A DNA stretch of 64,000 nt from Gemmatimonadota bacterium (GTDB taxonomy: Bacteria; Gemmatimonadota; Gemmatimonadetes; Longimicrobiales; Gaopeijiaceae), in contig JBDHIF010000011.1 of NCBI GenBank assembly GCA_039587535.1, positions 1-64,000 on the forward strand, written 5' to 3'. Each line of letters opens with the position of its first letter. Positions within the stretch are counted from its first letter, which is position 1. The notes under the pieces were generated by a model that was not told the DNA's origin, did not search any database, and saw nothing but the letters and a program-made list of their open reading frames with translations. This document shows positions 4,901-22,245 of this stretch, one piece after another. The position numbers were made by a program, and so were the translations under genes.

Positions 4901-5637
4901 GTAGATGGGGCGCCGGGGGGATGTAGGAGTCCCCGATTCCAGGCGCGTGTCTCGCTACGGGCCTCCAGGGCCTCGTAAGCTCCCTCGGTGAGAGGCGTCA
5001 CACGCTCGAGACCAAGTTTGTCACTCTCAGTGCGCCAGCGGACGCTTCTCGCCCTCAAGTCCGCGTCCATTTCGGTCGTTGAGGCCGAAGGCGGCTGCTT
5101 TGTCGACTGGCGCGCAAGCTTCGAGGTGGCTGAGGGGCCGGCTGATGAGGCCTGCGGAATGATGAAGGGTGTGTATGAGGAAGGCATGTCTGCCCTGCGG
5201 GAGGCCCACGCCGGATGGGTACACCGGTCGACGTATGCGGGCGGGGCGGTAGGTACTGGATAGGTGGTGTCCGGTGCCCTCCCGTTCCCTTTGGCATGCA
5301 CCCCGACCCGCGTCTCACACATCTGTCCGCCACGTCTCACTCGGCTCGATCTGAAGGGCTTGGCGCGTTGGGATTGGACACGACAACCCGGGCACGGCCA
5401 GGACGACCGGTAGCCCAATGCCAATCCCAGCAACCGCGGCGTGAATCGGTCCGGACCCCGCTGTCTGACGGCCAAGCTGCGTCAGCAGCCATGCCGTTAT
5501 GGGGATTCCCAGGAAGGCACCCGTGCCCAGCTGAGCGATGGAGCGGCGACCACAGGTAAAGGCCAGACTGGAGTTGCGCGCTCCCACCACGGTTCGAACA
5601 CCGATCTCTCGGGTCCGCTCCGAAACCGAGAAGGAAG

Positions 5638-5669: not shown

Positions 5670-5775
5670 TATTACCGCTCGTTGATCAAGTGGACATAAT
5701 CGACGGGGCGCCGTAAGATCTTCCGCTCACGTATCAGCATGACTCCACCTCAACCCCGAGAAGGAACTGCTGCCC

Positions 5776-7077
5776 ATGGGCCTTGTTTCCTTTCTGGCCG
5801 CGGTGCAAGCCGAAGCGCCGATCCAGGATGCTCCCGCCTGGGACGCACTTAGCACGCTTTGGATCCTGATCGCGGCGATCCTTGTCTTCTTCATGCAGGC
5901 GGGGTTCAGCGTACTCGAGGCCGGACTGGTGCGAGCGAAGAACGCCGGGAATGTGCTGATGAAGAATCTCCTCGATTTTTCGTCGGCCACGCTGGGCTAC
6001 TTCGTCTTCGGGTACGCGATCATGTACGGCTCGGAGGGGCTTCTGTTCGGGACCGAGGGGTGGTTCCTCGCGGGTGTCGAGTCTCCGGTCGATGGTTTGC
6101 CTGTCGAAGTCTTTTGGCTCTTCCAAGCCATGTTCGCGGGTGCCGCTGCGACGATCGTCGCGGGTGCGGTCGCGGAGAGGATGAAGTTCACGTCCTACCT
6201 GGCCTACTCGTTCATCCTCTCGGCTTTCATTTACCCGATCGTCGGTCACTGGGTGTGGGGTGGCGGTTGGCTCGCCGGCCTCGGCTTCCACGATTTCGCC
6301 GGCTCGACGGTGGTGCATGCTGTGGGGGGCGTAACCGGGCTCGTGGCCGCATGGGTACTGGGTCCACGTTTCGGGAAGTTCAATAAGGACGGCTCGCCCA
6401 ATGCGATCGGGGGGCATAGCCTCCCGTTGGCCTCGCTCGGCGTCTTCATCCTCTGGTTTGGCTGGTATGGCTTCAACGCCGGATCGACCCTCGGAATGGG
6501 TGAGCCCGACGTCGTCGCCCGGATCGCCATCAACACGACGCTAGCTCCTGCCATCGGCGCGGTAATGGGCATGATCACGAGTTGGGTTCGCTATGGGAAG
6601 CCGGACCTTCTGTTGGCCCTGAACGGAGCTCTCGCAGGGCTGGTAGGGATTACCGCAGGTTGCGCCGCCGTGACTCCGGGAGCGGCGCTTTGGATCGGAG
6701 CGATCGCCGGGGTACTCTGTGTCTACGGAATCGCGTGGATCGACGCGATTCGAGTGGACGATCCGGTCGGGGCCGTGGCGGTACACGGGATCTGCGGCAT
6801 CTGGGGCACGCTGGCTGTCGGCCTCTGGGGCCGGGAGACGTTCGGCGCGACCGGCGACGGCCTCTTCATGGGCGGGGGCTTCGGCGCGTTGGGCATTCAG
6901 ATGCTGGGTGTGATCGCGTGCCTCGGGTTCACGGCGATCGCGATGTGGATCGTGTTCACGGCGATCGACTCGGTCCTCGGCCTGCGCGTCTCGCACGAGA
7001 CGGAGCTGCGCGGCCTCGACATCGATGAGCACGGGATCGAGTCGTACGCCGGGTTCCAGATCTTCACCACCGACTGA
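5776..7077 (+). CDS. amtB: Ammonium transporter (Amt/MEP family)
   Basis: 433 aa. It has 11-12 TM helices and an Amt signature region (..FFMQAGFSVLEAGLVRAKN..), followed by a P-II gene. Confidence 0.9.
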   Translation: MGLVSFLAAVQAEAPIQDAPAWDALSTLWILIAAILVFFMQAGFSVLEAGLVRAKNAGNVLMKNLLDFSSATLGYFVFGYAIMYGSEGLLFGTEGWFLAGVESPVDGLPVEVFWLFQAMFAGAAATIVAGAVAERMKFTSYLAYSFILSAFIYPIVGHWVWGGGWLAGLGFHDFAGSTVVHAVGGVTGLVAAWVLGPRFGKFNKDGSPNAIGGHSLPLASLGVFILWFGWYGFNAGSTLGMGEPDVVARIAINTTLAPAIGAVMGMITSWVRYGKPDLLLALNGALAGLVGITAGCAAVTPGAALWIGAIAGVLCVYGIAWIDAIRVDDPVGAVAVHGICGIWGTLAVGLWGRETFGATGDGLFMGGGFGALGIQMLGVIACLGFTAIAMWIVFTAIDSVLGLRVSHETELRGLDIDEHGIESYAGFQIFTTD

Positions 7078-7091
7078 GGCGAGTTCTTGCC

Positions 7092-7427
7092 ATGAAGATG
7101 ATCATCGCGGTGATCAAGGCGGAGCAGCTACCTGCCGTGAAACAGGCGCTGTTTGACGCCGAGATCAGACACATGACGGCCACATCCGTCCTGGGAACTG
7201 CGCCGCGTACAGAGCAGCAGATGTACCGTGGTGTGAAGAAGGAGGTTTCGCTCTTCAAGCGGGTTCGCCTGGAGGTGGCGGTCAATGACGCCAACGTGGA
7301 GCGCGCCATCGAGGCCATATCCCGCGGATGTATGGAGTCGGGCGGCGCCGGGAAGATCTTCGTGACCGAGCTGCACGACGTCGTCACTGTGTGGACCGGC
7401 GAGCGCGGTTCGCGAGCACTGTACTGA
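7092..7427 (+). CDS. glnK: Nitrogen regulatory protein P-II (GlnK-type, divergent T-loop)
   Basis: MKMIIAVIKAEQLPAVKQAL.. is a P-II fold of 111 aa. The T-loop reads GTAPRTEQQMYRGVKKE (Tyr retained, RQKGH replaced). Confidence 0.8.
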   Translation: MKMIIAVIKAEQLPAVKQALFDAEIRHMTATSVLGTAPRTEQQMYRGVKKEVSLFKRVRLEVAVNDANVERAIEAISRGCMESGGAGKIFVTELHDVVTVWTGERGSRALY

Positions 7428-7434
7428 GGGCGTC

Positions 7435-8871
7435 ATGTCGAAACGACCTACCAGCCCTCGCGACGTCGTCGGGATGATCAAGGATCGCGACATTGCATTT
7501 CTCGATCTGAAGTTCGTCGACCTGTTCGGAACGCTGCAGCACCTGACGTTGCCCGCCGAGCTGGTCGACGAGGCGCTCTTCCGGAATGGGATGGCGTTCG
7601 ACGGTTCCTCGGTGCGCGGATTCACCCGGATCAACCAGAGCGACATGCTCCTGATCCCGGATGCATCGTCGGTTTTCCAGGACCCATTCTTCGACGACCC
7701 TGCGTTGTCGGTCTTCTGCGACATCGTCGATCCGAACGGACGTTACACCTTCTCCCGTGATCCCCGTTCGGTCGCTCGGCGGGCCGAGCAGCTCGTCCGT
7801 TCGCTGGGGATTGCGGACACGGCGTTCTTCGGTCCGGAGATCGAGTTCTTCATCTTCGACGACGTGCGCTTCGACCAGGCCACGCAGCACGGCTATTACT
7901 TCCTGAACAGCGCGGCGGCGTCGTGGGCCACGGGTGAGACGGGAGAAGGTTCGAACCTCGGCCACCGAGCGGCGCAGAAGGGCGCCTACTTCTCGGCGCC
8001 GCCCGTGGACCAATACAACAATCTTCGATCGAAGATCTCCCATGTGCTGCGGAGCGTTGGATTACAGCCAGAACTGCACCATCACGAGGTCGGGGCGGCG
8101 GGCCAGTCCGAGATCGGGTTCCGTTTTGGACCACTCCTCCATCAGGCGGACGCGTCGATCAAATACAAGTACGTCGTCAAGAACGTCGTAAACCGCTACG
8201 GGAAGACCGCCACCTTCATGCCCAAGCCGCTTCTCCAGGAGAACGGCTCCGGAATGCACCACAACATCAGTCTGGCGAAGGATGGTAAGAACGTCTTCTA
8301 CGAACCCGGGACCTATGGAGACTTGAGCGCCCTCGCGGTGCACTTCATCGGTGGGTTGCTCGAGCACGCAGCGGCGCTCTGCGCGATCTGCTGTCCGACG
8401 ACGAACTCCTATCGGCGCCTCGTGCCGGGATACGAGGCACCGATGAACCTTCTTTACTCTGGTCGAAATCGAAGCGCCTGTGTGCGCATACCAACCATGA
8501 CCGGGGGACCCAAGTCGAAGCGGATCGAGTTCCGCACACCGGACCCCTCGTGCAACCCGTATCTCAGCTTCGCCGCCATCATGTGTGCCGGTATCGACGG
8601 CATTCGGCGGAAGATCGTGCCGGCGGATCCCGTCGATGAGGACATCTACGAGCTCGCGGCATCTGAGAGCGGTCGAGAAATCGAGCGGACACCGGGCACG
8701 CTCGACGAGGCGATCAGTGCGCTCGAGCAGGATCACGACTTCCTCGTTCAGGACGGGGTCTTCACACCCGACTTCGTCGAGACCTGGGTCGATCTGAAGA
8801 GAACGAAGGAAATCGACTTTGTCCGGCTTCGCCCGCACCCGGGCGAGTTCTCCCTTTACTTCAACGCGTAG
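7435..8871 (+). CDS. glnA: Glutamine synthetase type I
   Basis: 478 aa with the GS beta-grasp and catalytic domain motifs. It sits in an amtB-glnK-glnA arrangement. Confidence 0.9.
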   Translation: MSKRPTSPRDVVGMIKDRDIAFLDLKFVDLFGTLQHLTLPAELVDEALFRNGMAFDGSSVRGFTRINQSDMLLIPDASSVFQDPFFDDPALSVFCDIVDPNGRYTFSRDPRSVARRAEQLVRSLGIADTAFFGPEIEFFIFDDVRFDQATQHGYYFLNSAAASWATGETGEGSNLGHRAAQKGAYFSAPPVDQYNNLRSKISHVLRSVGLQPELHHHEVGAAGQSEIGFRFGPLLHQADASIKYKYVVKNVVNRYGKTATFMPKPLLQENGSGMHHNISLAKDGKNVFYEPGTYGDLSALAVHFIGGLLEHAAALCAICCPTTNSYRRLVPGYEAPMNLLYSGRNRSACVRIPTMTGGPKSKRIEFRTPDPSCNPYLSFAAIMCAGIDGIRRKIVPADPVDEDIYELAASESGREIERTPGTLDEAISALEQDHDFLVQDGVFTPDFVETWVDLKRTKEIDFVRLRPHPGEFSLYFNA

Positions 8872-8891: not shown

Positions 8892-10196
8892 ATGGACCAA
8901 GCACAGCTCATTGGGATCTACCTGGGCGTCGGCGCACTCGCGATCCTCGCGCTCGTGATCTTCGTCAAGGCGAACATCGTGATCTGCGCCCCGAACGAGG
9001 TGGTGATCATCTCGGGCCGGAAGCGGAAGACGAAGGACGGAACCGTCGTCGGCTACCGGCTGATTCGAGGCGGCAGGGGCTTCAAGTGGCCTCTCCTGGA
9101 ATCGGCGCGCCGTCTGCCGCTCACGACGCGCACCGTAGAGATTCGGCCGCACAGGGCCTTGTGCCAGGGAATGATTCCTGTGGATATCGAGGGGCGCGCC
9201 AATGTCAAGCTCGCGGGGCGTGAAGAGGATGGCCTCGAAGCGGGGATCGAGCGATTCCTCGGAAAGGGTGTGGAGGCGATCGACAAGACGGCTCAGCAAG
9301 TGCTCGAGGGTGCGCTACGGGGAGTGATCGCGGGTGTTCGCCCGGAAGAAGCAAACGAGCGCCGGCTCGAGCTGGCGCAGGACGTCGCTCAAAGGGCGCG
9401 TTCCGAGCTGTCTGGTCTGGGCATCGTCCTGGACTTCTTCCAGATCCAAGACCTCTCCGACGGGGCTGGCTATCTGGAGGCGATCGGACGCCGGCGAAAT
9501 GCCGAGGTTCAGCGTGATGCGCAAATCGCCGAGGCAGAGGCCGATGCCGAGGCACGGCAGGTTTCGGCCGAACAGAAGCGGCTCGGCCGTGAGGCCGAGA
9601 TCGCGGCCGAGCAGCTGGTCATCCAGAAAGAGAACGCGCTCGAAGTGCAGCGCGCGAATCTCGCTGCGCTCGAGAACGAGGCCAAGGAGCGGGCGTCGGT
9701 CGCCGGTCACATCGCCCGTGTCGATCGTGAGGTCGAGCTGGAGACGAGAAGGGCTGAGCTCAGCGAGAAGAAGCATGCCGCCGACACCGTCATACCGGCG
9801 CGCGCGCGCTCCGAGGCGGACCGACTGGAGGCGGAGGGGCGAGCCGCCCGGATCCGAGAGGAGGGACGGGCGACCGCCGAGGCCGTGCATGTGATGCGCG
9901 AAGAATGGGATGGCGGCGCAGCGCAGGATCTCTTCATGATTCGTATGTTCCCGGAACTGGTCGACAAAGTGACTCGAGTGGTGGCTGAGAACCTTCGTGT
10001 CGACAAGCTGACGATCCTCGATGGTGGTGGTGACGGTGGTGGAGACGGGTTGCCCAATTACGTCCGAAATCTCACGGGCAGCGCGGTAGCGATGATGGAG
10101 CAGATGAAGAACGCCACGGGGGTCGATCTCGCACGGATTGCGGAACGGGGCCGAGAGGGGCAGTCTCGGGCGGATGTGCCGAGCGAGCTGGACTGA
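8892..10196 (+). CDS. Flotillin-like SPFH/band-7 domain protein (FloT/YqiK family)
   Basis: N-terminal TM, an SPFH domain, a long EA-rich coiled coil (flotillin repeats) and a Gly-rich tail. Confidence 0.75.
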   Translation: MDQAQLIGIYLGVGALAILALVIFVKANIVICAPNEVVIISGRKRKTKDGTVVGYRLIRGGRGFKWPLLESARRLPLTTRTVEIRPHRALCQGMIPVDIEGRANVKLAGREEDGLEAGIERFLGKGVEAIDKTAQQVLEGALRGVIAGVRPEEANERRLELAQDVAQRARSELSGLGIVLDFFQIQDLSDGAGYLEAIGRRRNAEVQRDAQIAEAEADAEARQVSAEQKRLGREAEIAAEQLVIQKENALEVQRANLAALENEAKERASVAGHIARVDREVELETRRAELSEKKHAADTVIPARARSEADRLEAEGRAARIREEGRATAEAVHVMREEWDGGAAQDLFMIRMFPELVDKVTRVVAENLRVDKLTILDGGGDGGGDGLPNYVRNLTGSAVAMMEQMKNATGVDLARIAERGREGQSRADVPSELD

Positions 10197-10220
10197 ACCT
10201 CAAGGTCCTGGAGGCTGCGG

Positions 10221-10628
10221 GTGCATGACATGACGGAAAGCGATTCGGCGGCGCGCAAGGTCGAGGAGGTCCTCAGGCACCACGGACTGTCGCGGGACAG
10301 TGTGCTGTATCGGGAATCTCTTGAGACCTTCGTCGAACGGGATGACGACGGGCATGAGACGGTCACGGCCAATGCTGATCCGTCGGAGGCGGTCGTGAAC
10401 GTCTACGAGGGCGGTCATGTCGCGCTTGCGGCTCAGATCGGAGCGGGGCTCGCGTTCAATGAGCGACGAGACAACCAGTGGCGTGAGGAAGGTCGGGTGA
10501 CCGTGGCCGTGCGGCTCGGAGACGTGCTTGACCAGGGGGGGATGCTGTACCCGGTCGAGTCGGTGATCACTGAGCCCGTCTGGTACGTGACGTTGCCGGC
10601 AGGACGAGTCCGCGTGACACGAACCTAG
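10221..10628 (+). CDS. Hypothetical protein (135 aa), abutting the downstream sensor gene
   Basis: Stop at 10628 and GTG start of the next gene at 10629. No family recognised. Confidence 0.4.
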   Translation: MHDMTESDSAARKVEEVLRHHGLSRDSVLYRESLETFVERDDDGHETVTANADPSEAVVNVYEGGHVALAAQIGAGLAFNERRDNQWREEGRVTVAVRLGDVLDQGGMLYPVESVITEPVWYVTLPAGRVRVTRT

Positions 10629-12497
10629 GTGGCGCTCTCTTTGATACAGGATCGGTCGATCCGAGTCCGCGTCTTCGTCGTCCTCGCCGCCGTCGCGGTT
10701 CTATCCATTGGTGTGGTGGCGGCGGTGTCCTACCGCCTGGGATTGGCCACCCTCGAGCAGCAGGCGTTCGACCGCCTCACCTCGGTGCGTGAGTTGAAGG
10801 GGCGTCAGGTCGAGGGATATTTCCGCACGATCCGAGACCAGGTCGTCACGCACGCCGAGAATCGTATGACCATCGACGCGGTGCGTGAGTTCACGGCCGC
10901 CGCCACGACCCTGGAAGCAGAGCTGGGGGTGCCCGACGCGAGCGAGCGCGAGCTCTCTCTGCGGCTCTACTACCAGGATGAGTTTCTCCCCCGTCTCGGG
11001 GAGCGCGCTGCAGATGCCGGTGCTCTGTCCGCCTACTGGCCCGAGGACGCTCTGGCGCGCTCACTCCAGTACCTGTTCATCAGCGCCAGCCCGTTCGCCG
11101 TCGGTTCGAAGCAACTTCTGGACGATTCGGGTGCCGGGGTCCGGTACGATGACGTTCACGGGCGCTATCACCCCCTTTTCCGGAGTTTTCTCGAGCGGTT
11201 CGGCTACTATGACATCTTCCTCGTGGACGCGGCGACCGACCGAATCGTGTACTCGGTGTTCAAGGAGATCGACTTCGGCACGTCCCTCGAACGGGGTCCG
11301 CATCGAAGCTCGAACCTCGCGGCAGCATACCGAGCGGCACGAGATTCGGGGGTAGACTCATTCACCCACCTGGAGGACTTCGAACCGTATGCGCCATCGT
11401 ATGGTGCTCAAGCTTCCTTCATCGCATCTCCGATCTTCGACGGGGACGAAATCCTGGGCATTCTCGTCTTCCAGCTCCCGCTGGACCGTATCAACGAGTT
11501 GATGACGAGCGAGCGCGCCTGGCGGGACGTGGGGTTGGGGGCGTCGGGCGAAACGTACGTGGTCGGTTCGGACCAGAGGCTTCGAACCGAATCTCGCTTT
11601 CTCATAGAAGATCGCGAGGAGTACCTGGGTGCGATCGAGAGGGGTGGCCTCGACGAGCGTATCGTGCGGTCGATCGAGGCGCAGGGCAGCGCCATCGGGC
11701 TTCAACCGGTCCAGACAAACGGGGTGGAACGAGCGCTTGGGGGTGAAACGGGAACCGACCGCTTCCCCGACTATCGGGGCGCCGAGGTGTTCTCCAGCTA
11801 CCGACCTCTCACGATCCCAGATCTCGAGTGGGTGCTCATGAGCGAGATCGATTCGAGCGAAGCCCTCGCGCCGCTCGTTGCGCAGCGGAACCGTATGCTC
11901 GTGGCGCTGGCCATATTCCTGCCGCTGATCGGCGGACTGGCACTGTGGTTCGCCGGGAATCTCGTTCGCCCCATCGAGGCCCTGTCTCGGAGGGCCGAGG
12001 AACTCGCCAGGGGAGAGCTCGATCACGAGGTCGACATCTCGCGTGGCGACGAGATCGGTGAGCTCGCGCGCAGCTTCGAAGCGATGCGCGTGGCGTTGCG
12101 CGATCAAATCGATCGACAGAATCGTTCGATCGACGCCTTGTCCACGCCCCTGATCCCGATCCATGACGACGTCGTGGTCATGCCGCTCGTGGGTGAGCTC
12201 GACGAGGCGCGATGCGAGAGGGTTCGAGAGTCGCTCACGGCTCAGCTCCACAGCAATGGAGCGCGGTCGGTGATCCTGGATCTTACTGGAGTCTTGCGAC
12301 TGGATGACGATGTGGCGCGCGGGCTGATTCGGATTGCGCGAACTGCCCGTCTCGTGGGCGCGCAGGCCATCGTGTCGGGCGTCCGACCCGAACTCGCTGC
12401 TCAGCTGGCGGACGGCGACGTCGATACACAGGGCATCGTGACGGTGCGCACATTGAGAGACGCGATCGAGAGCGCCACGATGCACCGTGACGGGTGA
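10629..12497 (+). CDS. Membrane sensor with a periplasmic Cache-like domain, HAMP and C-terminal STAS (RsbR-like) domain
   Basis: TM1 and a ~380-aa periplasmic region are followed by TM2, a HAMP helix (..IEALSRRAEELARGELDHEVDISRGDEIGELARSFEAMRVAL..) and STAS (..VVVMPLVGELDEARCERV..ILDLTGV..VSGVRPELA..). Confidence 0.65.
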   Translation: MALSLIQDRSIRVRVFVVLAAVAVLSIGVVAAVSYRLGLATLEQQAFDRLTSVRELKGRQVEGYFRTIRDQVVTHAENRMTIDAVREFTAAATTLEAELGVPDASERELSLRLYYQDEFLPRLGERAADAGALSAYWPEDALARSLQYLFISASPFAVGSKQLLDDSGAGVRYDDVHGRYHPLFRSFLERFGYYDIFLVDAATDRIVYSVFKEIDFGTSLERGPHRSSNLAAAYRAARDSGVDSFTHLEDFEPYAPSYGAQASFIASPIFDGDEILGILVFQLPLDRINELMTSERAWRDVGLGASGETYVVGSDQRLRTESRFLIEDREEYLGAIERGGLDERIVRSIEAQGSAIGLQPVQTNGVERALGGETGTDRFPDYRGAEVFSSYRPLTIPDLEWVLMSEIDSSEALAPLVAQRNRMLVALAIFLPLIGGLALWFAGNLVRPIEALSRRAEELARGELDHEVDISRGDEIGELARSFEAMRVALRDQIDRQNRSIDALSTPLIPIHDDVVVMPLVGELDEARCERVRESLTAQLHSNGARSVILDLTGVLRLDDDVARGLIRIARTARLVGAQAIVSGVRPELAAQLADGDVDTQGIVTVRTLRDAIESATMHRDG

Positions 12498-12559
12498 GGG
12501 ACGGGCCGGCGCTGCGTTGGGGATTCGCGACAGACTGACTTAACACTTCGTAGAGGCGC

Positions 12560-13444
12560 ATGATGCACACCAATCACATCGACTATCGAGAGCTGCTGAC
12601 GCTCTATCGTATCACCGACGCTGATCTTCGGCGCATCGAGGCGTTCGGGGTTCAGGCCGTGAAACGGATGGATGAGCTGGTGGAGCGCTGGTACGCCTGG
12701 CTCGAGGTGTTGCCCGACTACGAAGACTTCTTCAGCGACCCCGAGACTCTGGCCCGAGTCCAGAAACTCCAGGACGGTTACTGGGATTTCTTCATGAAGG
12801 CCGCGGTCGACGACGAGTACGTGTCACGGCGGGTGCTCGTCGGTGAGGCGCACGCTCGAATCGGGCTATCGCTGAACACCTACTTCGCGGGCATGAACAT
12901 GTTTCAGGAGCTCTTCAGCGAGGTCGTACGCGACGGCGATTTCGAGGAAGGCGAGCGTCAGGCCACGATCGATTCCGTCTCCAAACTCCTCCACTTCGAC
13001 ACCGCCATCGTCGTCGATACCTACAACCGGCTGGTGGAGCAGACACTCACGGCTCAGTCGCGGGCGCTCATGGAGATGTCGACACCGGTCACGGAGATAT
13101 GGGAGGGCCTCCTGTTCCTGCCCATCGTCGGGATCATCGACTCGCGCCGGTCGCGCGACATCATGAACGCGACCTTGAGCAAGATCGCGGACACACAGGC
13201 ACGGGTATTCATTCTCGACATCAGCGGGGTCGGTGTGGTGGACACGGCAGTGGCGAACCACCTCATCAAGATTACCCGGGCGACCAAGCTCATGGGTTGT
13301 GAGACCACGATCTCGGGGGTCTCGCCGGCCATCGCTCAGACGATTGTCGATCTGGGTATCGACGTCGGCGAAGTGAAGACGACCGCGACCATGCGCGACG
13401 CTCTGGCCGACGCGGTCGAGCTCGTCCGGCAGGGCCGTCGGTGA
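12560..13444 (+). CDS. rsbR: Stressosome sensor RsbR-like (N-terminal non-haem globin-like domain plus STAS)
   Basis: N-terminal helical sensor domain, then STAS with ..LLFLPIVGIIDSRRSRD..ILDISGVGVVDTAVANHL..ISGVSPAIAQ.. Confidence 0.7.
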   Translation: MMHTNHIDYRELLTLYRITDADLRRIEAFGVQAVKRMDELVERWYAWLEVLPDYEDFFSDPETLARVQKLQDGYWDFFMKAAVDDEYVSRRVLVGEAHARIGLSLNTYFAGMNMFQELFSEVVRDGDFEEGERQATIDSVSKLLHFDTAIVVDTYNRLVEQTLTAQSRALMEMSTPVTEIWEGLLFLPIVGIIDSRRSRDIMNATLSKIADTQARVFILDISGVGVVDTAVANHLIKITRATKLMGCETTISGVSPAIAQTIVDLGIDVGEVKTTATMRDALADAVELVRQGRR

Positions 13445-13458
13445 GTGTGGCGTAGGCG

Positions 13459-13953
13459 ATGACGGATCGCGGCGCCCGGATTCCGCTCCAGCTTGCGCAG
13501 CAGTGCGTGGTGGCGTCGATCCAGGTGGACCTGGACGACCGAGTGCTGGCTGCGTTTCGGGCGGAACTCCTGGAGTTCCTGCGACGCTCCGGCGCGCGCG
13601 GAGTCATTCTCGACTTGTCGGGGGCTGCGGTGATGGACAGAGAGGAGTTCGGCGCTCTCCGAGACACGATGCGCATGGCGCTCCTAATGGGCGCAACGAC
13701 CATCGTTTCGGGGATGCGGCCGGGCGTGGTGTCCGCTCTGATCGACCTCGAGGCCGACACCGACGGGGTGCTGGCGACGGCGACACTCGACGATGCGTTC
13801 GACTTGATGCGAGAGACTCAGTCCGACAGGCACAGAGACGAGGAAGATGAGGTCGGGGAGGTCGACGAACCCCTCGAGGGTACCGGCGCGGAGGCCGTCC
13901 AACGCGATGAGACCGGACCCCACGCGCAGGTGAGTGCGTCGCCCGAACCATGA
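13459..13953 (+). CDS. rsbS: Stressosome scaffold RsbS-like (single STAS domain with acidic tail)
   Basis: ..VVASIQVDLDDRVLAAFRAELLEF..VILDLSGAAVMD..VSGMRPGVV.. Confidence 0.7.
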   Translation: MTDRGARIPLQLAQQCVVASIQVDLDDRVLAAFRAELLEFLRRSGARGVILDLSGAAVMDREEFGALRDTMRMALLMGATTIVSGMRPGVVSALIDLEADTDGVLATATLDDAFDLMRETQSDRHRDEEDEVGEVDEPLEGTGAEAVQRDETGPHAQVSASPEP

Positions 13954-15053
13954 GTCCTCGGTCGGTCAAGCGAATCCGGAGCGATCCGGACGTGAGTCAT
14001 GCGGTGATCGCGGCGTCGGATTTCGCGCGTCGACTCGACTTCAGTGAACTCGACAGTCGCTCCATCGGCACCGTCGTGTCGGAGCTAGCCACCAACATCA
14101 TCAAGTACGCGGTGGACGGCCGAGTAGTGATCGAAGAGGTGACCGCAGGCGACCGTCATGGGATTCAGGTCACCGTAGCCGATCGCGGCCCCGGGATCCC
14201 TAACATTCGTGAGGCACTTCAGGATCACTTCAGTTCGAGCGGGACGCTCGGCCTCGGCCTGCCTGGCGTCAGGCGCATGGTGGACGACTTCGACATCCAA
14301 TCGGAAGTGGGCCGAGGGACCACGGTGGTCGTCCGCAAGTGGCTGGGCGGGCCCTCACCGCGTGCTCGTAGGGCAGAGCTCTTGCAAGGCTCGTCGGCGA
14401 GCGCCGCATTCGCCGAGCGAGGCACCGATCGGGGGAGGGAAAGCTACGAGGCACCGAACGAGCCGGGGAGGCGGTTGCAGATCGGGTACGTGAACCGACC
14501 TTGCAGAGGTGAGCTGCTGAGCGGCGACGGTGTGCTCGTGACCGAGCTCGATGGTGCGGCGCTGATTGTGGTGGTCGATGGGTTGGGGCATGGCCGGGAC
14601 GCGCACGAGGCAGCGAAGGCGGCGACCCGGCTTGTTCGCAAGGAGCCGAACCTCGACCTTTCGGACCTGATGAGGCGGTTGGACGTCCGGTTGCAGGGAA
14701 CCGTCGGCGCGGCACTGTCGTTGTGCTCCATCGATCTCGATTCCGGCCTCGTTCGATACGTTGCGGTCGGGAACACCGTGTTGCGCATCGAGGGTGAGCG
14801 ATCGCGACGAGTCGGAGCCATGACAGGCACTGTCGGTAGTCGGCTCAAGGCGCCGAGGGTCGAGACCGCCGAGCTCTCATCGGAGGATGTGCTCCTGATT
14901 CACACGGATGGGATCTCGGAGCGCCTCACGCTGGAAGACTATCCGCAACTCCGATATCAGAGCCCCCAGACCGTGGCCGAGACGATCTTGTCCCGCTACG
15001 GAAAGAAGCACGACGACGCGACGGTGCTCGCCGCCAGATTCGAAGACTCATGA
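13950..15053 (+). CDS. Fusion of an RsbT-like GHKL serine kinase (HATPase_c) and a PP2C/SpoIIE phosphatase (RsbX-like)
   Basis: The N-terminal ..VSELATNIIKYA..VADRGPGIP..GLGLPGV.. is an anti-sigma-type kinase. The C-terminal PP2C has ..SGDGVL..VVVDGLGHG.. Its start shares ATGA with the rsbS stop. Confidence 0.65.
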   Translation: MSPRSVKRIRSDPDVSHAVIAASDFARRLDFSELDSRSIGTVVSELATNIIKYAVDGRVVIEEVTAGDRHGIQVTVADRGPGIPNIREALQDHFSSSGTLGLGLPGVRRMVDDFDIQSEVGRGTTVVVRKWLGGPSPRARRAELLQGSSASAAFAERGTDRGRESYEAPNEPGRRLQIGYVNRPCRGELLSGDGVLVTELDGAALIVVVDGLGHGRDAHEAAKAATRLVRKEPNLDLSDLMRRLDVRLQGTVGAALSLCSIDLDSGLVRYVAVGNTVLRIEGERSRRVGAMTGTVGSRLKAPRVETAELSSEDVLLIHTDGISERLTLEDYPQLRYQSPQTVAETILSRYGKKHDDATVLAARFEDS

Positions 15054-16729
15054 TCGAGCTCGGCACGATCACGGGGGGAGCGGAGGGTGCCGTTCGGGAC
15101 GCGCGCAGGAAGGTTCACGCGGCTCTCGAGCGGTTGACGGCGGATGACATGCTGGCCAGTCGGATCGCTTCGGTCACCTCCCAGATCTTTCGGGCGATCG
15201 AGCGCGGTGCGAATCCAGGCAGGATCATCGTTCGCTTCGATGAGGCGGGAGCCCAGCCTACGTTCGTTCTCGACCTGATCGGTGTCGGCGGTGAGGTCGA
15301 CGAGGCGACGGCCGCATCGTTCTTCGATCAGGTCGTTTGGGTTCGGGTCGGCGATGTACCGTGCCTGCGGCTTGGTCTCTACATCCACATCGCCCCGGGA
15401 TTGGAGCTTACCGAGCGCCGCGTCGCGGAATTGCGCGGCGTGATCGAGCAGAAGGGGAGGGATGCGCTGATGCAGGAGCTCACCCTGAAGAACCGGGAGC
15501 TCCAGGATTCGTTCGACAACCTCCGTCGGACCACCACGGCCAAAGAGCGGATGGAGAGCGAGCTCAACATCGGTCGGGACATCCAGATGAGCATGCTGCC
15601 GCTCGAATTTCCGGCGTTCCCGCACCGCACCGACTTTACGGTATTCGCTACCCTCGAGCCTGCGCGGGAGGTCGGAGGGGATTTCTACGACTTCTTCCTC
15701 CTCGACGAGGATCGCTTCTGTTTCTGTGTTGGAGATGTCTCCGGCAAAGGGGTGCCTGCGGCACTCTTCATGGCCGTCACCAAGACGCTTATCAAGTCGC
15801 GCGCGACCAACGATTTCTCACCAGCCAGCATTCTCACGCACGTCAACGACGAGATCTCGACCAACAACGACTCGGCGATGTTTGTGACGCTCTGGCTGGG
15901 CATCCTGGACGTGACGTCCGGAGCGCTGGAGTACACGAACGCCGGACATAACCCGCCTTATCTCCTGCGCCACACGGGGGAGGTGGTGCGGTTGGACGAG
16001 CGGCACGGTCCCGTGCTCGGTGCTGTGGACGGACTCGTCTATTCCGAGGGCTCCGGTCAGTTGGAGCGCGGTGACGTCGTCTTCGTGTACACCGACGGTG
16101 TCACCGAGGCGATGGACCCGGACGGGCAGCTCTACGAGGAGGACCGCCTCGTTGAGGTCCTTCGGGCGAGCGATATCGATTCGGTGGAGTCTTTGGTTCG
16201 TGCATCGACCGACGACGTGTGGCGTTTTCAGGCCGACGCGGAACAGGCCGACGACGTCACCGTGCTGGCGGTCGAGTTCTCCGGCCGGCCCGGTGGCTCC
16301 GAAGGCGTCCACATTCTCGAGCTGTCAGTTGCGAATCGACTCGAAGAGATCGACTCCGTCAACGAATCCTTCGAGGCGTTCGCAGCCGAGCACGGGCTCC
16401 CGGAGAAGGTCCGGAGAAGTATGAAGCTCGTTTTCGACGACTTGTTGAACAACGTGATCTCGTACGCATACGAGGACGAAGAGGAGCATCGCATCGGCGT
16501 GCGCGTCGAGTTGTCCTCCGATCGGGTCGCCGTACGCATCAGTGACGACGGGCACCCGTTCAATCCTTTCGGCCGGAATGCGCCGGACACGGCGCTGGCC
16601 CTGGGTGCGAGGGAGATTGGAGGTCTCGGTATCCACCTCGTGCAGAACCTGATGGACGAGGTCTCGTACACGCGGCGAACCGATGAAAACGTCGTTCTGC
16701 TGGTGAAATACCTATCAAATTCGGAATGA
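15050..16729 (+). CDS. RsbU-like PP2C phosphatase fused to a C-terminal RsbW-like GHKL kinase domain (N-terminal regulatory domain plus coiled coil)
   Basis: The PP2C has ..GGDFYDFF..CVGDVSGKGVPAALFMA..YTDGVTEA.. The C-terminal HATPase_c has ..DDLLNNVISYAY..ISDDGHPFNPF..GLGIHLV.. Confidence 0.65.
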   Translation: MIELGTITGGAEGAVRDARRKVHAALERLTADDMLASRIASVTSQIFRAIERGANPGRIIVRFDEAGAQPTFVLDLIGVGGEVDEATAASFFDQVVWVRVGDVPCLRLGLYIHIAPGLELTERRVAELRGVIEQKGRDALMQELTLKNRELQDSFDNLRRTTTAKERMESELNIGRDIQMSMLPLEFPAFPHRTDFTVFATLEPAREVGGDFYDFFLLDEDRFCFCVGDVSGKGVPAALFMAVTKTLIKSRATNDFSPASILTHVNDEISTNNDSAMFVTLWLGILDVTSGALEYTNAGHNPPYLLRHTGEVVRLDERHGPVLGAVDGLVYSEGSGQLERGDVVFVYTDGVTEAMDPDGQLYEEDRLVEVLRASDIDSVESLVRASTDDVWRFQADAEQADDVTVLAVEFSGRPGGSEGVHILELSVANRLEEIDSVNESFEAFAAEHGLPEKVRRSMKLVFDDLLNNVISYAYEDEEEHRIGVRVELSSDRVAVRISDDGHPFNPFGRNAPDTALALGAREIGGLGIHLVQNLMDEVSYTRRTDENVVLLVKYLSNSE

Positions 16730-16745
16730 AGGAGTATTACGGATC

Positions 16746-17078
16746 ATGAACATCTCGGTCAGCGTCAACGGAGACGTCACTGTCGTCGGCTTCGAGGGGA
16801 ATCTCGACACGAACACGGCGCCCGAAGCGGAAGCGCGCCTGGATGAGCTGGCGAGTGGGGGGGGCGGCAAGATCCTGATCGACTTCGCCGATCTCGACTA
16901 CATCTCTAGCGCCGGGCTTCGAGTGCTTCTGGCGACCGCGAAGAAGCTGCGTGGTGCAGGAGGCAACCTTCGACTGTGCAGCCTCAACGAGATGGTTTCG
17001 GAGGTATTCGAGATCTCGGGCTTCAGCACGATCTTCGCGGTGTTCCCAACGGAAGCGGAGGCGCTGGAGGGCTTCTGA
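16746..17078 (+). CDS. Anti-sigma-factor antagonist-like STAS protein (RsbV/SpoIIAA family)
   Basis: 110 aa with ..KILIDFADLDYISSAGLRVLL.. and a conserved Ser in DYISS. Confidence 0.75.
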   Translation: MNISVSVNGDVTVVGFEGNLDTNTAPEAEARLDELASGGGGKILIDFADLDYISSAGLRVLLATAKKLRGAGGNLRLCSLNEMVSEVFEISGFSTIFAVFPTEAEALEGF

Positions 17079-17197: not shown

Positions 17198-19786
17198 GTG
17201 AATATCGTTATTGCGGACAGCGTCGTTCGTGGAACGCTGAGCCCGGAGCGGCAGTTCCACGGCATTCCCTCGAACCTCGGTGCCCGCGAGATCGCCCGGC
17301 TCATGGGCCGGGGTCGAGCATATGGCGAAGGCCCCCTGCCGTCGATTATCCGAGCAGCGGCGGCATCAGGCGGGCGCACGGGTCTCGTGCTGCTCCGTGA
17401 GGTGGCACCGCAGGACGAGGCAGGCGCGTCGAACGGTGTATCGGGAGCTCGTGAGGCGCTCGCGGAATGGGTCGACCCGGTTCGATCCGTAGCCGCTGCG
17501 GCATCGGCGCTCGATTGCGCTCCCGGGCGAATTCCCTGGCGCACGCTGATCAAAAGGATCGCCGGCGTGGCGGGTGTCGAAGAGAGTTCCGTAGCCGACG
17601 GTATCGCCGACCTCGGCTTCCTCGTGGTGGGATGCCAAACGGAGGAGCGGATCCAGGCGATCGCGACATTCCTGAGGACTGTCCTCGGTTTCGAGCGCGT
17701 CGCTGTAAGTCCCCACCTCGTAGGGAGTGCCACGGCCGAAGCGCACTACGCGGTGCTACGCCACAACCTGCCTCGGTCCGGCGTGAACGTACTTCTCGAT
17801 CTGGGTGAGGCAGCCAGGTGGGTCGACATCGATCCCGATCGTGCCGGGCTCGCGGGAGGTGCGCCTTGCGTGATCGGGCCGCGTGAAGCTCGCGAGCAGA
17901 TGGAGGCCGACGCCCAGCGCATCGTCCAATTGATCTGCATGCACTGGACGAGGGCGAAACTGCGCGCTCTGGCAGGAGGGTTCAGCGGGAGTCTGCTTTT
18001 CCTCGCCGAGGGCTTGAAGGGCGAGGCGCGGACTGAGCCGATGGTGATCAAGATCGACGCCTTCGCTCAGATGCGACGTGAGCTCGACGGCTACCATCAG
18101 GTGAAGGACCTCTTTGGCAAGCACGTGCCCACGTTCGGGTACCCGGTCCGTCAGGGCAGCCTGCTCGGTGTCGGGATGGAGCTGGCAGCGATGAAGGGCG
18201 ACCCAACTACGCTGCAGGACGACTTCGAGAAGGCGGACTCAGAGTCTCTGCTGGTACGCTTTCTCACCCGGCTCGAGAAATCTCTGGACCTCCTGTCTGA
18301 AAAGCTCTACGGCAACACGCTAGAGCGTGGCAGCGTCGCCCCGTTCCGGATTTTCGGGCTGCACTCGGCTCAACAGATCGTGTGGCTGAGGGAGAACGCT
18401 ACGATCATTCAAGGCTATTTCGATGAGTCCAGCCACTCCGTTGAAAACGTCGATCTGGACCAGCTCGAGAATGTGGCACGCTTGATAACGCGGAATCCCG
18501 ATGCGGTCCAGTCCGAGCTCTGTCTGCAGCACGGCGACCTGAATCTCGCCAACGTCATCTGCGACGAAGGCGACAACGTGTGGTTCATCGACTGGACGCA
18601 CAGTGGAATCCACCCGCTGGAACTCGACTTCGCGAAGCTCGAGAACGACGTGAAGTTCGTGATGAGCAAGGACTTCGATGTCGATGATCTACCCCGGCTG
18701 CACGCATTCGAAGAGTACCTTCTCAACCAGAGGATCCCGGGTTCCGCAGAAGAGCTTCCGGACGCGTTGAAGTTCGCGAAGTGGGATCTGCGCTTCCGGA
18801 AGATCCTCGCCGCCGTGCGTCTGATTCGTCAGCGCTGTGACCGGCTCAAAGAGGGTGATGATTGGCTGGTCTATCGGGTGGCCTTGCTGCGATATGCCAT
18901 GCACACGCTCAGCTTCGATCAGCGCAGGGGAGGGGGTGAGTGTGACGAGACTCAGCTCATGTATGCCCTGTACTCGTGCGAGTCGCTCTCGCTTTCGCTC
19001 GTTGCCGACGATTTTCACCTCAAAATTCGCGCCGAGCGGCCCGCGTCGTACCCCGAACGCCAGCGCATCTCGATCGACGAGTCGCTGTGGCTTCTGGATT
19101 GCGAAGATTACGCCCCTCCCTACCACGTCGATCAGACCGTGTTGGAAGCGGCGGGTGATCGCGGCGACAAGGGGTGGGCGGATCCGGAAGAGGTGGACTC
19201 TGCCGTGCTGGCCGAGCGACCGGCACGCTTCCGGGACGATGAGGGACGGCCGCTGAACCCGCGTGGCCGCACGGGGATCGCTGGCCGGGGACTTCTGGGC
19301 CTATGGGGCGCCAACGCGTCGGTCGTGGGTGTCGTGCTGCGTACCAGCGCGGTGACGGGTGAACTCCAGATCCTGCTCGGTTCCAGCGAGGACGACCCGA
19401 CGCTCCAGGTGCCGAAGGGGTTCCTCTTCCCGGACGAACAACCAGAAGACGGTCTTCTCCGCGTCATGCAGGTGGAAGCCGGTTGGCGACCTCAGGGGGC
19501 GCCGATCCCGTTGAGTGACGGCTACGCGTACGACGCCCGCCAGACGGACCACGCCTGGGTCGAGCAGCGAGCGTATCTGTTCGACCCTGCGGAGGAGGAC
19601 GTTCCGGATCTCTTCGACCCGGCGGGTGATCTCGACGAGGTCTCGTGGTGGCCCCTGGATGTGGAGACGATGACCCGGATTCCGGCGGGTCAGGCTCCGG
19701 TGATCAACGAGGCGCTGGAAGCCGCACGCGGGGCGGGGCGGCTCGACGAAGAGCTGGCGGGGCGACTGATCCGCAGGGCCGTCTGA
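17198..19786 (+). CDS. Three-domain protein combining an N-terminal isochorismatase-like domain, a choline/ethanolamine-kinase (APH-fold) domain and a C-terminal NUDT9-like Nudix domain with a degenerate Nudix box
   Basis: The kinase region has HGDLNLANVICDEGDNVWFIDWTHSG (Brenner motif plus DxE/W). The Nudix region has ..NPRGRTGIAGRGLLGLWGANASVVGVV.. (NUDT9 signature) and the box GFLFPDE-x7-RVMQVEAGW (REx2EE degraded to RVMQVE). The N-terminal region has ..LVVGCQTEERIQAI.. resembling the G-x-C/T-D motif region of cysteine hydrolases but lacking the Cys. Confidence 0.5.
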   Translation: MNIVIADSVVRGTLSPERQFHGIPSNLGAREIARLMGRGRAYGEGPLPSIIRAAAASGGRTGLVLLREVAPQDEAGASNGVSGAREALAEWVDPVRSVAAAASALDCAPGRIPWRTLIKRIAGVAGVEESSVADGIADLGFLVVGCQTEERIQAIATFLRTVLGFERVAVSPHLVGSATAEAHYAVLRHNLPRSGVNVLLDLGEAARWVDIDPDRAGLAGGAPCVIGPREAREQMEADAQRIVQLICMHWTRAKLRALAGGFSGSLLFLAEGLKGEARTEPMVIKIDAFAQMRRELDGYHQVKDLFGKHVPTFGYPVRQGSLLGVGMELAAMKGDPTTLQDDFEKADSESLLVRFLTRLEKSLDLLSEKLYGNTLERGSVAPFRIFGLHSAQQIVWLRENATIIQGYFDESSHSVENVDLDQLENVARLITRNPDAVQSELCLQHGDLNLANVICDEGDNVWFIDWTHSGIHPLELDFAKLENDVKFVMSKDFDVDDLPRLHAFEEYLLNQRIPGSAEELPDALKFAKWDLRFRKILAAVRLIRQRCDRLKEGDDWLVYRVALLRYAMHTLSFDQRRGGGECDETQLMYALYSCESLSLSLVADDFHLKIRAERPASYPERQRISIDESLWLLDCEDYAPPYHVDQTVLEAAGDRGDKGWADPEEVDSAVLAERPARFRDDEGRPLNPRGRTGIAGRGLLGLWGANASVVGVVLRTSAVTGELQILLGSSEDDPTLQVPKGFLFPDEQPEDGLLRVMQVEAGWRPQGAPIPLSDGYAYDARQTDHAWVEQRAYLFDPAEEDVPDLFDPAGDLDEVSWWPLDVETMTRIPAGQAPVINEALEAARGAGRLDEELAGRLIRRAV

Positions 19787-19788
19787 TC

Positions 19789-20733
19789 GTGTCTCTCCTG
19801 AACCAAGAACGCGCCGCGCTCGACGGATTCCGCTCCGCGCGGCCTCTGGTGACGAGGTCCGACGCCCTCGAGGAGGCTGCAGCGAATCGAGCTGATACGG
19901 ATCGACCGGTGGAGGAGCTCGTGTGGACGACGTTCCTCCTGCGTACGGTGCTCGAGGCGGGTCGGACCGTCCGCGCCGTACCTCCGTCCGTGTTGGAGCT
20001 CAAGCGAGACGGGTCACCGGTGACCGCGCTCGAGCGTGACATCGAGCTCGAAATCAAAGAGGCTCTCGAGGTGTTCGAACCCGAGGCGGTCTTCGTAGGT
20101 GAGGAAAGTGGCGGGTGGCTGCACGACGCGGGTTGGACACTCAGCATCGATCCCATCGATGGCACGTGGGCGTTCCTCTCGCACACGGAGACATTCTCCG
20201 TGGTGATGAACCTCTTTCTAGAAGGCCAGCCCTTCATGGGCGTCGTGGCGAGTCCGTTGACCGGTGAGATCGGTTACGCGGCAGCGGGTGGAGGGACCCG
20301 GCTCGTGCGCCTCGACGTCCTCGGCGAAGGCGACCAGGGGTTCGCGCTACCGTTGGGCGATCGAGACTCCAAGAAGACCCTCGTGAACTTGCACCCGGCC
20401 GAACGAGGCTCGCGGCTGGTGTCGGCCTTCTACGAAGCATGGGAACGACGGGACGTCCGTATGGTCCGTGCGCCCGGTGGATCCCCGTCGTGGGCCATGC
20501 TCGAGGCGGCGCGGGGACACTTCACTTATGTGAACGAGTGGGCCAAGTCCGCAGCGGATCCGTGGGATCTGGCTGCAGGCGTCCTCCTCGTGAACGGAGC
20601 GGGCGGCGTGGTCGTGGATCTCGACGGCCAACCGATCGATCCCGTGGGCCACATCGGCCCATTCGTCGCCAGCGTGTCCGAGCAGCAGTGCTCACGCGTC
20701 TTGTCGATCGTACGCGAGGCCTTAAGCCCATGA
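19789..20733 (+). CDS. Inositol monophosphatase / CysQ-family phosphatase (3'(2'),5'-bisphosphate nucleotidase-like)
   Basis: It has ..FVGEESG.., DPIDGT and WDLAAG motifs. The start was moved to GTG 19789, just after the upstream stop, because the upstream part of the 19645 ORF overlaps the previous gene. Confidence 0.65.
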   Translation: MSLLNQERAALDGFRSARPLVTRSDALEEAAANRADTDRPVEELVWTTFLLRTVLEAGRTVRAVPPSVLELKRDGSPVTALERDIELEIKEALEVFEPEAVFVGEESGGWLHDAGWTLSIDPIDGTWAFLSHTETFSVVMNLFLEGQPFMGVVASPLTGEIGYAAAGGGTRLVRLDVLGEGDQGFALPLGDRDSKKTLVNLHPAERGSRLVSAFYEAWERRDVRMVRAPGGSPSWAMLEAARGHFTYVNEWAKSAADPWDLAAGVLLVNGAGGVVVDLDGQPIDPVGHIGPFVASVSEQQCSRVLSIVREALSP

Positions 20734-22016: not shown

Positions 22017-22245
22017 CATTGGGCCGGTTCTTGGGCCCACTCGACCCGGTAGCTTCCGACGTCACATTCCGGCAAGAACGGCAGATCGTGCGCCCCGCCT
22101 TGGGTTTACACGGTTTCTTGCCGGAATTCGGCTAAGCTGCTATCGGCCTGATGAGCGTGAGGTCGGTAGTTCAAATCTACCCAGGCCCACTTTTGGAAGT
22201 GATGGCCCCGCTTGGCTTTGGATGGCCAAGCGGGGCTTCTTCGTT
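22017..22245 (+). ncRNA. Copy 4 (best-context copy) of the structured tRNA-like 3'-UTR RNA element with terminator (22204-22244), immediately downstream of the channel gene
   Basis: Same architecture as copy 1 with ~90% identity over ~225 nt. Confidence 0.5.

Follow-up and report, generated by a model that had tools for sequence, protein, structure and literature searches.

A globin-coupled, stressosome-type operon with a membrane Cache-HAMP-STAS protein and fused kinase-phosphatase components in a Gemmatimonadota bacterium

The first 64 kb of contig JBDHIF010000011.1 (GCA_039587535.1), from an uncultured Gemmatimonadota bacterium and referred to here as the window (64,000 nt), contain an operon of six co-directional plus-strand open reading frames (ORFs) at positions 10629-17078, with intergenic gaps of 0-62 nt and 4-nt ATGA stop/start overlaps at two junctions (Table 1). 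The genes encode a Cache-HAMP-STAS membrane protein (CHS), a globin-coupled RsbR, an RsbS-like protein, a fusion of an RsbT-type kinase to an RsbX-type phosphatase (RsbT::RsbX), an output effector with PP2C and RsbW-type domains, and an RsbV/SpoIIAA-type STAS protein. The original prediction, made from the sequence alone, had described these genes as a complete stressosome without a sigma factor, fed by a membrane sensor and built with doubly fused kinase and phosphatase components. Pfam profiles support the domain architecture proposed for the six proteins, the Cache domain falling just short of its cut-off, and matches to solved RsbR and RsbS and to the phosphatases MtX and RsbX bear out a stressosome-type module. 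NCBIfam holds no specific family for the six other than a generic anti-sigma-factor antagonist. We found the same operon on three other JGI metagenome contigs, with an identical 559-aa effector and the gene order kept, and the closest genome relatives are Gemmatimonadota/Longimicrobiales metagenome-assembled genomes (MAGs) in which the 367-aa fusion is 89% and 77% identical. Because the operon is conserved on other contigs and in many MAGs, and because its domains are supported by profiles, we regard the observation as real and not as a chance pattern.

Table 1. Genes and signals of the locus, with positions in the window
Feature	Position	Strand	Evidence
Cache-HAMP-STAS membrane protein (CHS), 622 aa	10629-12497	+	Pfam, hydropathy, STAS comparison, phosphosite columns, 17-member alignment
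Globin-coupled RsbR, 294 aa	12560-13444	+	Pfam Protoglobin and STAS; match to 7o0i_B
RsbS-like single STAS protein, 164 aa	13459-13953	+	Best solved-structure matches are RsbS chains
RsbT::RsbX-type kinase-phosphatase fusion, 367 aa	13950-15053	+	Pfam, motif conservation, MtX/RsbX match, AlphaFold2
Output effector (Un, coiled coil, PP2C, RsbW-type kinase), 559 aa	15050-16729	+	Pfam, AlphaFold2, profile comparison
RsbV/SpoIIAA-type single STAS protein, 110 aa	16746-17078	+	Pfam, NCBIfam, alignment
amt	5776-7077	+	Pfam
P-II/glnK	7092-7427	+	Pfam
glnA	7474-8871	+	Pfam
Membrane SPFH/Band7 gene	8892-10196	+	Pfam
orf135, no family match	10221-10628	+	Stop abuts CHS start
TCAD9/APH kinase-like plus NUDIX protein	17198-19786	+	Pfam, JGI Pfam matches
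Inositol-monophosphatase-family protein	19789-20733	+	Pfam
Transmembrane plus TrkA_N protein	20763-22016	+	Pfam
Strong terminator-like hairpin, 13-bp stem, upstream of cluster	4562-4593	+	Consensus scan
Promoter-like site after upstream hairpin	5691-5719	+	Consensus scan
Strong terminator-like hairpin, 14-bp stem, after last gene of cluster	22204-22237	+	Consensus scan

The globin-coupled RsbR contains Protoglobin (Pfam, 9.8e-26) and STAS (4.6e-13) domains and aligns without gaps over 282 aa to RsbR of the Vibrio vulnificus stressosome solved by cryo-electron microscopy (cryo-EM; 7o0i_B, E = 4.6e-97; Listeria RsbR, 9e-29), and it is an ortholog of that Vibrio RsbR. Its His98 (GEAHARIGL) aligns with the Vibrio motif GEIHARVGL, placing the proximal histidine for haem, and haem binding is predicted. 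Ser195 and Thr229 correspond to Ser199 and Thr233 of VvRsbR (site numbering from PMC9237108), and Ser or Thr is conserved at both phosphosites in 66-67 of 68 globin RsbR family members. The RsbS-like protein scores just above the Pfam STAS cut-off (2.8e-5; 24.3 bits vs 22.6), and its best matches among solved structures are RsbS of V. vulnificus (7o0i_a, 4.8e-16), Listeria (4e-15) and Bacillus subtilis (2e-14). It carries Arg61 at the position of B. subtilis RsbS Ser59, a column that is Ser or Thr in only 15 of 81 family members; since Jia et al. had already noted that the Bacillus RsbS phosphosites are not conserved in Vibrio (PMC4976288), we rejected the missing serine as a novelty of this locus, and Ser59 appears to mark the Bacillus type and not all stressosomes. 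An acidic C-terminal tail of ~45 residues (aa 120-164) extends the RsbS-like protein beyond its STAS domain, and two RsbS genes from Halieaceae (loci L004 and L005 in our numbering of related loci) are also long, at 147 and 155 aa vs 115-123 aa for the solved RsbS chains.

In the 367-aa protein, an RsbT-type Ser/Thr kinase (aa 1-135; HATPase_c_2, 2.7e-13) is joined through a disordered linker (~136-160) to an RsbX-type PP2C domain (~170-367; SpoIIE/PP2C, 6.9e-13), an arrangement that the AlphaFold2 (AF2) model reproduces as two confident domains separated by a low-confidence linker at residues 138-149 (pLDDT 89, pTM 0.61). Among 30 homologues the kinase boxes (N49, D78-G80-G82 and G98-G103) and the PP2C metal motifs SGD, DGLGHG, TDG and HDD (D193, D210-G213-H214-G215, D320-G321 and D355-D356) are invariant. 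The PP2C half matches Moorella MtX over its full length (3zt9, 5.7e-19) and then B. subtilis RsbX (3w40, 3e-8), which supports the earlier suggestion that the phosphatase joined to the kinase is of the feedback type. An ungapped alignment puts the kinase half at 42% identity to a B. subtilis RsbT sequence, a comparison of value as a lead only. Both halves are present in 118 of the 120 best database relatives, and 233 species genomes carry relatives of the fusion. Among 80 related loci the fusion occurs in 49 and adjacent rsbT and rsbX ORFs in 30, indicating that it keeps a known pair together; the split form extends to genomes of isolates and to complete ones, Spirulina subsalsa and a Trueperaceae chromosome among them, although some of the split calls in MAGs could be frameshifts. 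The NCBI name of the protein, "ATP-binding SpoIIE family protein phosphatase", is generic, and no paper describing the fusion was found in the literature searched.

The output effector comprises an N-terminal domain that we call Un (aa 1-~135), a coiled-coil signalling helix (~137-181), a PP2C domain (219-410; SpoIIE, 9.6e-54) and a C-terminal RsbW-type kinase or anti-sigma-like domain (428-553; HATPase_c_2, 1.8e-24). The PP2C domain is intact, with Pseudomonas aeruginosa RssB as its best solved match, and both its Asp motifs and the N and G boxes of the RsbW-type kinase form invariant columns. The 110-aa protein encoded next is a single STAS domain (Pfam, 7.1e-22) that scores above the cut-off for the NCBIfam anti-sigma factor antagonist (2.5e-26), and in an alignment to SpoIIAA and RsbV its Ser55 falls at the phosphorylated Ser58 of SpoIIAA. 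The prediction of an RsbU-like PP2C fused to an RsbW-like kinase thus holds for the phosphatase and the kinase but not for the N-terminus: none of 41 family members matches Pfam RsbU_N, the four-helix domain with which RsbU binds RsbT, at E<=1, no RsbU_N chain appears among the profile matches of the region to solved structures, and we rejected an RsbU_N identity in favour of an RsbW-like fold. The 120 best relatives of the effector share its layout. Both fusions, though present as proposed, are widespread and generically annotated, and the idea of a double fusion unique to this window was set aside.

Profile-profile comparison (hhalign) pairs Un with the RsbT half of the protein encoded just before it (88% probability, E = 3e-6), with the ATP lid deleted and Ala in place of the N-box Asn, and the AF2 model of Un (pLDDT 87) shows the same order of strands and helices as the RsbT domain. 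On these models Un is probably a degenerate RsbW/RsbT-like domain without an ATP site, in other words a dead kinase. In all 69 occurrences in the loci we fetched, it opens the protein encoded next after rsbT/rsbX, beginning at residue 1, and is followed by a conserved coiled coil, whereas the outputs behind it are interchangeable: PP2C-RsbW plus STAS in Gemmatimonadota and Halieaceae, PP2C alone in cyanobacteria, and HisKA-HATPase-REC hybrids. An exhaustive single-sequence search of a 1.84-billion-protein library returned 56 cluster representatives, a lower bound on family size given the single query, and Un is N-terminal in all of them; a word-indexed search with the 184-aa N-domain alone gave seven matches. 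We infer that Un is the receiver of the stressosome kinase, which fits the remark of Heinz et al. that RsbU_N is missing from most of the proteins encoded after globin-type rsbRSTX modules (PMC9237108), so that the route from RsbT to these proteins has had no explanation; a literature search combining RsbT with pseudokinases returned nothing relevant. Methylococcales, Burkholderiales and Deefgea (L043, L044, L050 and L083) encode large HisKA-HATPase-REC-REC-Hpt hybrid kinases behind the RsbT::RsbX fusion, whose two halves are separate in Deefgea, and single-sequence phmmer did not detect the dead-kinase domain in the N-terminal ~170-250 residues of these kinases.

The first gene of the operon encodes CHS. 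Two hydrophobic segments (aa 9-42 and 421-446 by hydropathy), corresponding to the transmembrane (TM) helices TM1 (~9-42) and TM2 (421-446), flank a periplasmic Cache-like region (~43-420); a HAMP domain (440-492) matched over its full length (1-53/53; 5.5e-17, 62.3 bits) comes directly after TM2, and a helical linker ending in LSTPLIPI leads into an RsbR-type STAS domain (~505-615; Pfam, 1.1e-11). The dCache_1 match (1.1e-10) covers a partial stretch and, at 41.9 bits, lies just below the 45-bit gathering cut-off, with relatives scoring 25-47 bits. Against solved structures the STAS domain ranks Listeria RsbR first (1.5e-20), followed by V. vulnificus RsbR (2e-18), YtvA (1.5e-15), RsbS (2e-11) and SpoIIAA (1e-5), and it is 33% identical to the STAS domain of the neighbouring globin RsbR. 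With its two TM segments, complete HAMP and RsbR-type STAS, this input departs from the classical RsbR layout, as had been proposed. Where B. subtilis RsbRA has Thr171 and Thr205, CHS has Glu526 and Asp560, and 21 of 22 CHS proteins lack Ser or Thr at both sites, carrying acidic or non-phosphorylatable residues instead; YtvA has E168 and E202 at the same two positions (PMC3019169). We take CHS to be a YtvA-like accessory RsbR paralogue, integral to the membrane and presumably incorporated into the core.

The family is 41-76% identical across seven phyla, its periplasmic domain is very conserved in an alignment of 17 members, and the HAMP-to-STAS linker varies in length only by insertions of +7 and +21 residues, both heptad multiples. 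At 22 of 22 loci anchored on the kinase fusion, the CHS gene adjoins those for globin-RsbR, RsbS and RsbT. An independent metagenome scan, for which Cache-domain motifs and not stressosome genes served as anchors, yielded >481 relatives, most of which bear other outputs (PP2C, PP2C-RsbW plus STAS, or PAS-HK-REC, where HK denotes histidine kinase), and all 11 STAS-bearing versions immediately precede globin-RsbR, RsbS and RsbT(X). CHS lies beside a stressosome module in 33/33 occurrences, found in Gemmatimonadota, Acidobacteriota, Chloroflexota, Ignavibacteria, Armatimonadota, Desulfobacterota and Deinococcota. A Trueperaceae chromosome (CP070651.1; L073:12487-14424) encodes a Cache-HAMP sensor fused to a canonical RsbR STAS that keeps Thr/Thr; this STAS is close to that of the globin RsbR in the window, the linker has 21 extra residues, and the gene follows the module on its downstream side, a combination that points to a second, independent fusion between this sensor and a STAS of the stressosome. 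In the searchable literature we found no membrane RsbR described, though the phylogenomic surveys of Pané-Farré (2005 and 2017) could mention such proteins.

As the original prediction stated, there is no sigB-like gene. Pfam detected no Sigma70 domain among the ~60 called or leftover ORFs of the window, six-frame phmmer and jackhmmer searches of it with Escherichia coli RpoS, RpoE and FliA gave no match even at E<=10, and only three sigma genes, none adjacent to the module, occur in 85 related loci and their flanks of up to 10 kb. The window extends only 10.6 kb upstream of the module; orthologous loci on long contigs (L010, L012 and L013) have no sigma gene in their upstream flanks either, and on these grounds we rejected a nearby sigma factor. 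It cannot be concluded from this, as the original prediction did, that the output is necessarily not a sigma factor, because comparable systems act on sigma factors encoded at a distance: HsbR and CrsR, which combine REC, PP2C and kinase domains and work with a STAS partner, sequester RpoS encoded elsewhere (PMC6482189), and mycobacteria have rsbR-S-T-X plus a fused rsbUW with sigF elsewhere (PMC8115616). Non-sigma targets also have a precedent in HsbA, which is reported to bind FlgM and the cyclase HsbD (PMC6482189).

The lack of a local sigma gene is not new. Globin-type rsbRSTX modules occur in many Gram-negative lineages with eleven downstream architectures, including PP2C phosphatases, none with sigB (Heinz et al., PMC9237108 section 10), and such modules with non-sigma neighbours have been published (PMC9237108, PMC4976288, PMC10014275), so that of the proposed sigma-factor-less stressosome the observation stands and the novelty does not. 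The closest known system is the O2-sensing stressosome of V. vulnificus and V. brasiliensis, with which the operon shares an orthologous globin RsbR with the same Ser/Thr sites, an RsbS without the Bacillus Ser59, an RsbX encoded directly after RsbT, the lack of sigB and an output immediately downstream (PMC9237108, PMC4976288). It differs in that RsbT and RsbX form one polypeptide, in the second, membrane-spanning RsbR paralogue, in its phylum, Gemmatimonadota, and in its output, which is a two-component/c-di-GMP module (D1/D2) in Vibrio and a PP2C-RsbW protein with a STAS partner here. The Mycobacterium marinum locus (rsbR, S, T, X and rsbUW), compared by its description, shares the RSTX set, the fused RsbU-RsbW, a separate RsbV and a SigF encoded elsewhere (PMC8115616), but its rsbT and rsbX are separate and a membrane RsbR is not mentioned. 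HsbR-HsbA of P. aeruginosa and CrsR-CrsA of Shewanella likewise place an input domain, PP2C and RsbW-type kinase in one protein beside a STAS gene, with RpoS elsewhere (PMC6482189), but their input is a REC domain fed by a phosphorelay, in contrast to a degenerate RsbW/RsbT-like domain presumably fed by the stressosome kinase.

YtvA and Listeria RsbL (Lmo0799), both RsbR paralogues without the phosphosites, resemble CHS as accessory RsbR-type STAS proteins with a sensor of their own and acidic residues at the Thr171/Thr205 positions (E168/E202 in YtvA, E526/D560 here); YtvA is a soluble LOV photoreceptor, whereas CHS sits in the membrane and carries HAMP and a periplasmic Cache-like domain. 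Like B. subtilis RsbU, the effector is a PP2C whose gene follows that of the stressosome kinase, with an RsbV-type STAS protein as its predicted substrate and its N-terminal domain as the predicted point of control, but that domain has a GHKL/RsbW-like fold in place of RsbU_N and an RsbW-type kinase is fused at the C-terminus. The MtR-MtS-MtT-MtX system of Moorella thermoacetica is a further sigma-independent RSTX set, and its MtX, the best solved match of our fused PP2C, is a separate protein. The output of the Moorella stressosome is a diguanylate cyclase.

The six genes sit within a longer co-directional block, amt-glnK-glnA-Band7/SPFH-orf135 upstream and TCAD9/NUDIX, inositol-monophosphatase-family (IMPase) and TrkA_N genes downstream, that is bracketed by the only two strong terminator-like hairpins, the consensus scan finding none comparable to them between 5.7 and 22.0 kb. 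The upstream genes, from amt to orf135, stay linked in Gemmatimonadota despite a rearranged order (L018, L023, L024 and L032) and also in Ignavibacteria (L035), and the downstream trio is kept beside the module in three phyla: Gemmatimonadota, Ignavibacteria (L035) and Fimbriimonadia (L041). Halieaceae, in contrast, have only the five cytoplasmic genes (RsbR, RsbS, T::X, Un-PP2C-RsbW and V) without these neighbours, which suggests that the extra neighbours track the Cache sensor and not the partner switch. An Amt gene lies <=6 kb from the sensor in 6 of 50 Cache-anchored loci and in 7 of 12 loci anchored on the kinase-phosphatase fusion; in several of the Cache-anchored ones it is directly upstream of non-STAS versions of the same sensor (Cache-HAMP-PAS-HK hybrids), with Amt linkage in L109, L112, L118, L151, L157 and L161. 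This recurrent adjacency is a weak hint that the input may concern nitrogen or that the sensor and Amt may be functionally linked.

The 862-aa protein of the downstream trio combines TCAD9/APH kinase-like and NUDT9-like NUDIX domains. In stressosome-free loci (L107:335-3256 and L161:1551-3914), the same Cache sensor has other TCAD9-kinase proteins beside it, in which the kinase is joined to DSP-type phosphatase, rubrerythrin or isochorismatase-like domains. The trio possibly has a nucleotide- or NAD/ADP-ribose-related role; a literature search on TCAD9 returned only plant CAD genes. The flotillin-like SPFH/Band7 membrane gene is found directly upstream of the CHS gene in Gemmatimonadota and Fimbriimonadia (8892-10628 in the window; L041, L039 and L094), with orf135 (135 aa) inserted between the two in Gemmatimonadota. 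Directly upstream of amt lie two minus-strand phage-integrase-family fragments (306-776 and 4642-5475), and between them a PIN-domain gene (1493-1879, minus strand) and ORFs without a family match. The G+C content is lower in the first ~20 kb, which include the whole cluster, than in the rest of the window (0.61-0.64 vs 0.65-0.69), and together with the integrase fragments this could reflect a mobile-element remnant or an acquired island. Rfam and tRNA scans of the window gave no matches.

We interpret the operon, with a probability of roughly 0.55, as a globin-coupled rsbRSTX stressosome of the Vibrio type that feeds a fused partner-switch output. Globin-RsbR and RsbS would build the STAS core, which a Cache-HAMP-STAS dimer would join via its RsbR-type STAS, as YtvA does in Bacillus, tethering the complex to the inner membrane and adding a periplasmic small-ligand input through the continuous HAMP-to-linker helix. 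The kinase-phosphatase fusion would be held on the core until a change at the haem or in the Cache ligand leads to phosphorylation of RsbR Ser195/Thr229 and the kinase leaves, and the fused RsbX-type phosphatase would reset the RsbR sites at a fixed 1:1 stoichiometry. The freed RsbT domain may then engage the dead-kinase N-domain of the effector, its paralogue, and turn on the PP2C through the coiled coil; the PP2C would dephosphorylate Ser55 of the STAS protein, opposing the C-terminal RsbW-type kinase, and either the unphosphorylated STAS protein or the kinase domain would swap partners. The final target, the least certain step, would lie outside the operon and would most likely be a sigma/anti-sigma pair encoded elsewhere, as with CrsR/HsbR and the mycobacterial RsbUW. 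Along with the identity of this target, the assembly of the membrane paralogue into the core and the contact between RsbT and its receiver are the most uncertain elements.

Several observations weigh against this interpretation. The STAS domain of CHS is only distantly similar to that of its partner RsbR (33%), and a membrane-anchored dimer may not fit a closed pseudo-icosahedral core; with RsbS lacking the canonical phospho-Ser, the Bacillus release mechanism is not directly transferable. The hhalign probability for Un is not decisive alone, its fold being modelled by AF2, and Heinz et al. did not detect an interaction of V. vulnificus RsbT with the downstream protein D1, VV2_0077 (PMC9237108 section 10), which advises caution about a stable complex between RsbT and the effector N-domain. 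Some of these points lend themselves to other readings. CHS could be a separate membrane antagonist and not a stressosome subunit, its phospho-mimic STAS binding or releasing RsbT::RsbX, or the RsbW-type domain, upon sensing a periplasmic ligand, in parallel to a soluble globin-RsbR/RsbS core. The loss of both phosphosites and the divergent STAS would suit such a role, and the direct fusion of the same Cache-HAMP sensor to PP2C or PP2C-RsbW effectors elsewhere indicates that it can drive partner switches without a stressosome. We nevertheless consider this unlikely, as the STAS and its LSTPLIP linker are of the RsbR and not the RsbV/SpoIIAA type, YtvA has the same acidic substitutions and is described as a paralogue of RsbR within the stressosome pathway of Bacillus (PMC3019169, PMC9237108), and the CHS gene is never found alone but always directly 5′ of rsbR-rsbS. 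More improbable still is that no large stressosome forms and that the proteins act as a linear chain of small STAS-kinase-phosphatase complexes, stressosome-like in sequence only: the missing RsbS serine and the bulk of a phosphatase fused to the kinase would be in keeping with this, but RsbR and RsbS are closely related to their V. vulnificus counterparts, which form a complex of known cryo-EM structure (7o0i; PMC9237108).

The target is the other point at which readings diverge. In place of the remote sigma/anti-sigma pair that we favour, the partner switch could act on the TCAD9/NUDIX, IMPase-family and TrkA_N proteins encoded downstream, or on Amt, GlnK and GlnA upstream, which would give the non-sigma output of the original prediction a concrete form. 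The absence of a sigma gene from the window and from beside the module in the flanks of relatives, the linkage of these neighbours across rearrangements and three phyla, and the hairpins that bracket amt to trkA_N as one co-directional block all agree with a local, non-sigma output, as do the recurrence of TCAD9-kinase proteins and Amt beside the same sensor in the stressosome-free loci named above and the reported FlgM and HsbD partners of HsbA (PMC6482189). Against this, the five-gene module of Halieaceae has none of these neighbours, and gene linkage is no proof of a protein-protein target, and on the whole we think a local output of this kind unlikely.

In pairing a globin stressosome that lacks a sigma gene with a PP2C/RsbW/RsbV output, the operon combines parts already published, whereas the RsbT::RsbX fusion, a phosphosite-less membrane Cache-HAMP RsbR paralogue and a putative dead-kinase receiver in place of RsbU_N were not found described in the papers searched and are common to many uncultured relatives; a search for a stressosome in a Gemmatimonad returned no matching papers. 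A bolder generalization, for which the odds appear to us short of even, is that a membrane RsbR paralogue spread over seven phyla, with a small-molecule input (possibly ammonium or nitrogen) through its Cache domain, anchors the stressosome, and that its kinase signals via a previously unrecognised dead-kinase receiver, a paralogue of RsbT/RsbW, that stands in for RsbU_N and comes fused interchangeably to outputs of the phosphatase or histidine-kinase type. Although these findings leave the basic picture of the stressosome unchanged, they bear on long-standing questions about its signals and its connection to the membrane. Activating signals are known only for YtvA (blue light) and the Vibrio haem RsbR (PMC9237108, introduction), and the Cache domain of CHS offers an input that can be screened for ligands as well as a route from the envelope to the complex. 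Un is a concrete candidate docking domain for RsbT, present on every effector after rsbT/rsbX in this family, and the RsbT::RsbX fusion, by locking kinase and phosphatase at 1:1, would provide a natural experiment on the feedback step.

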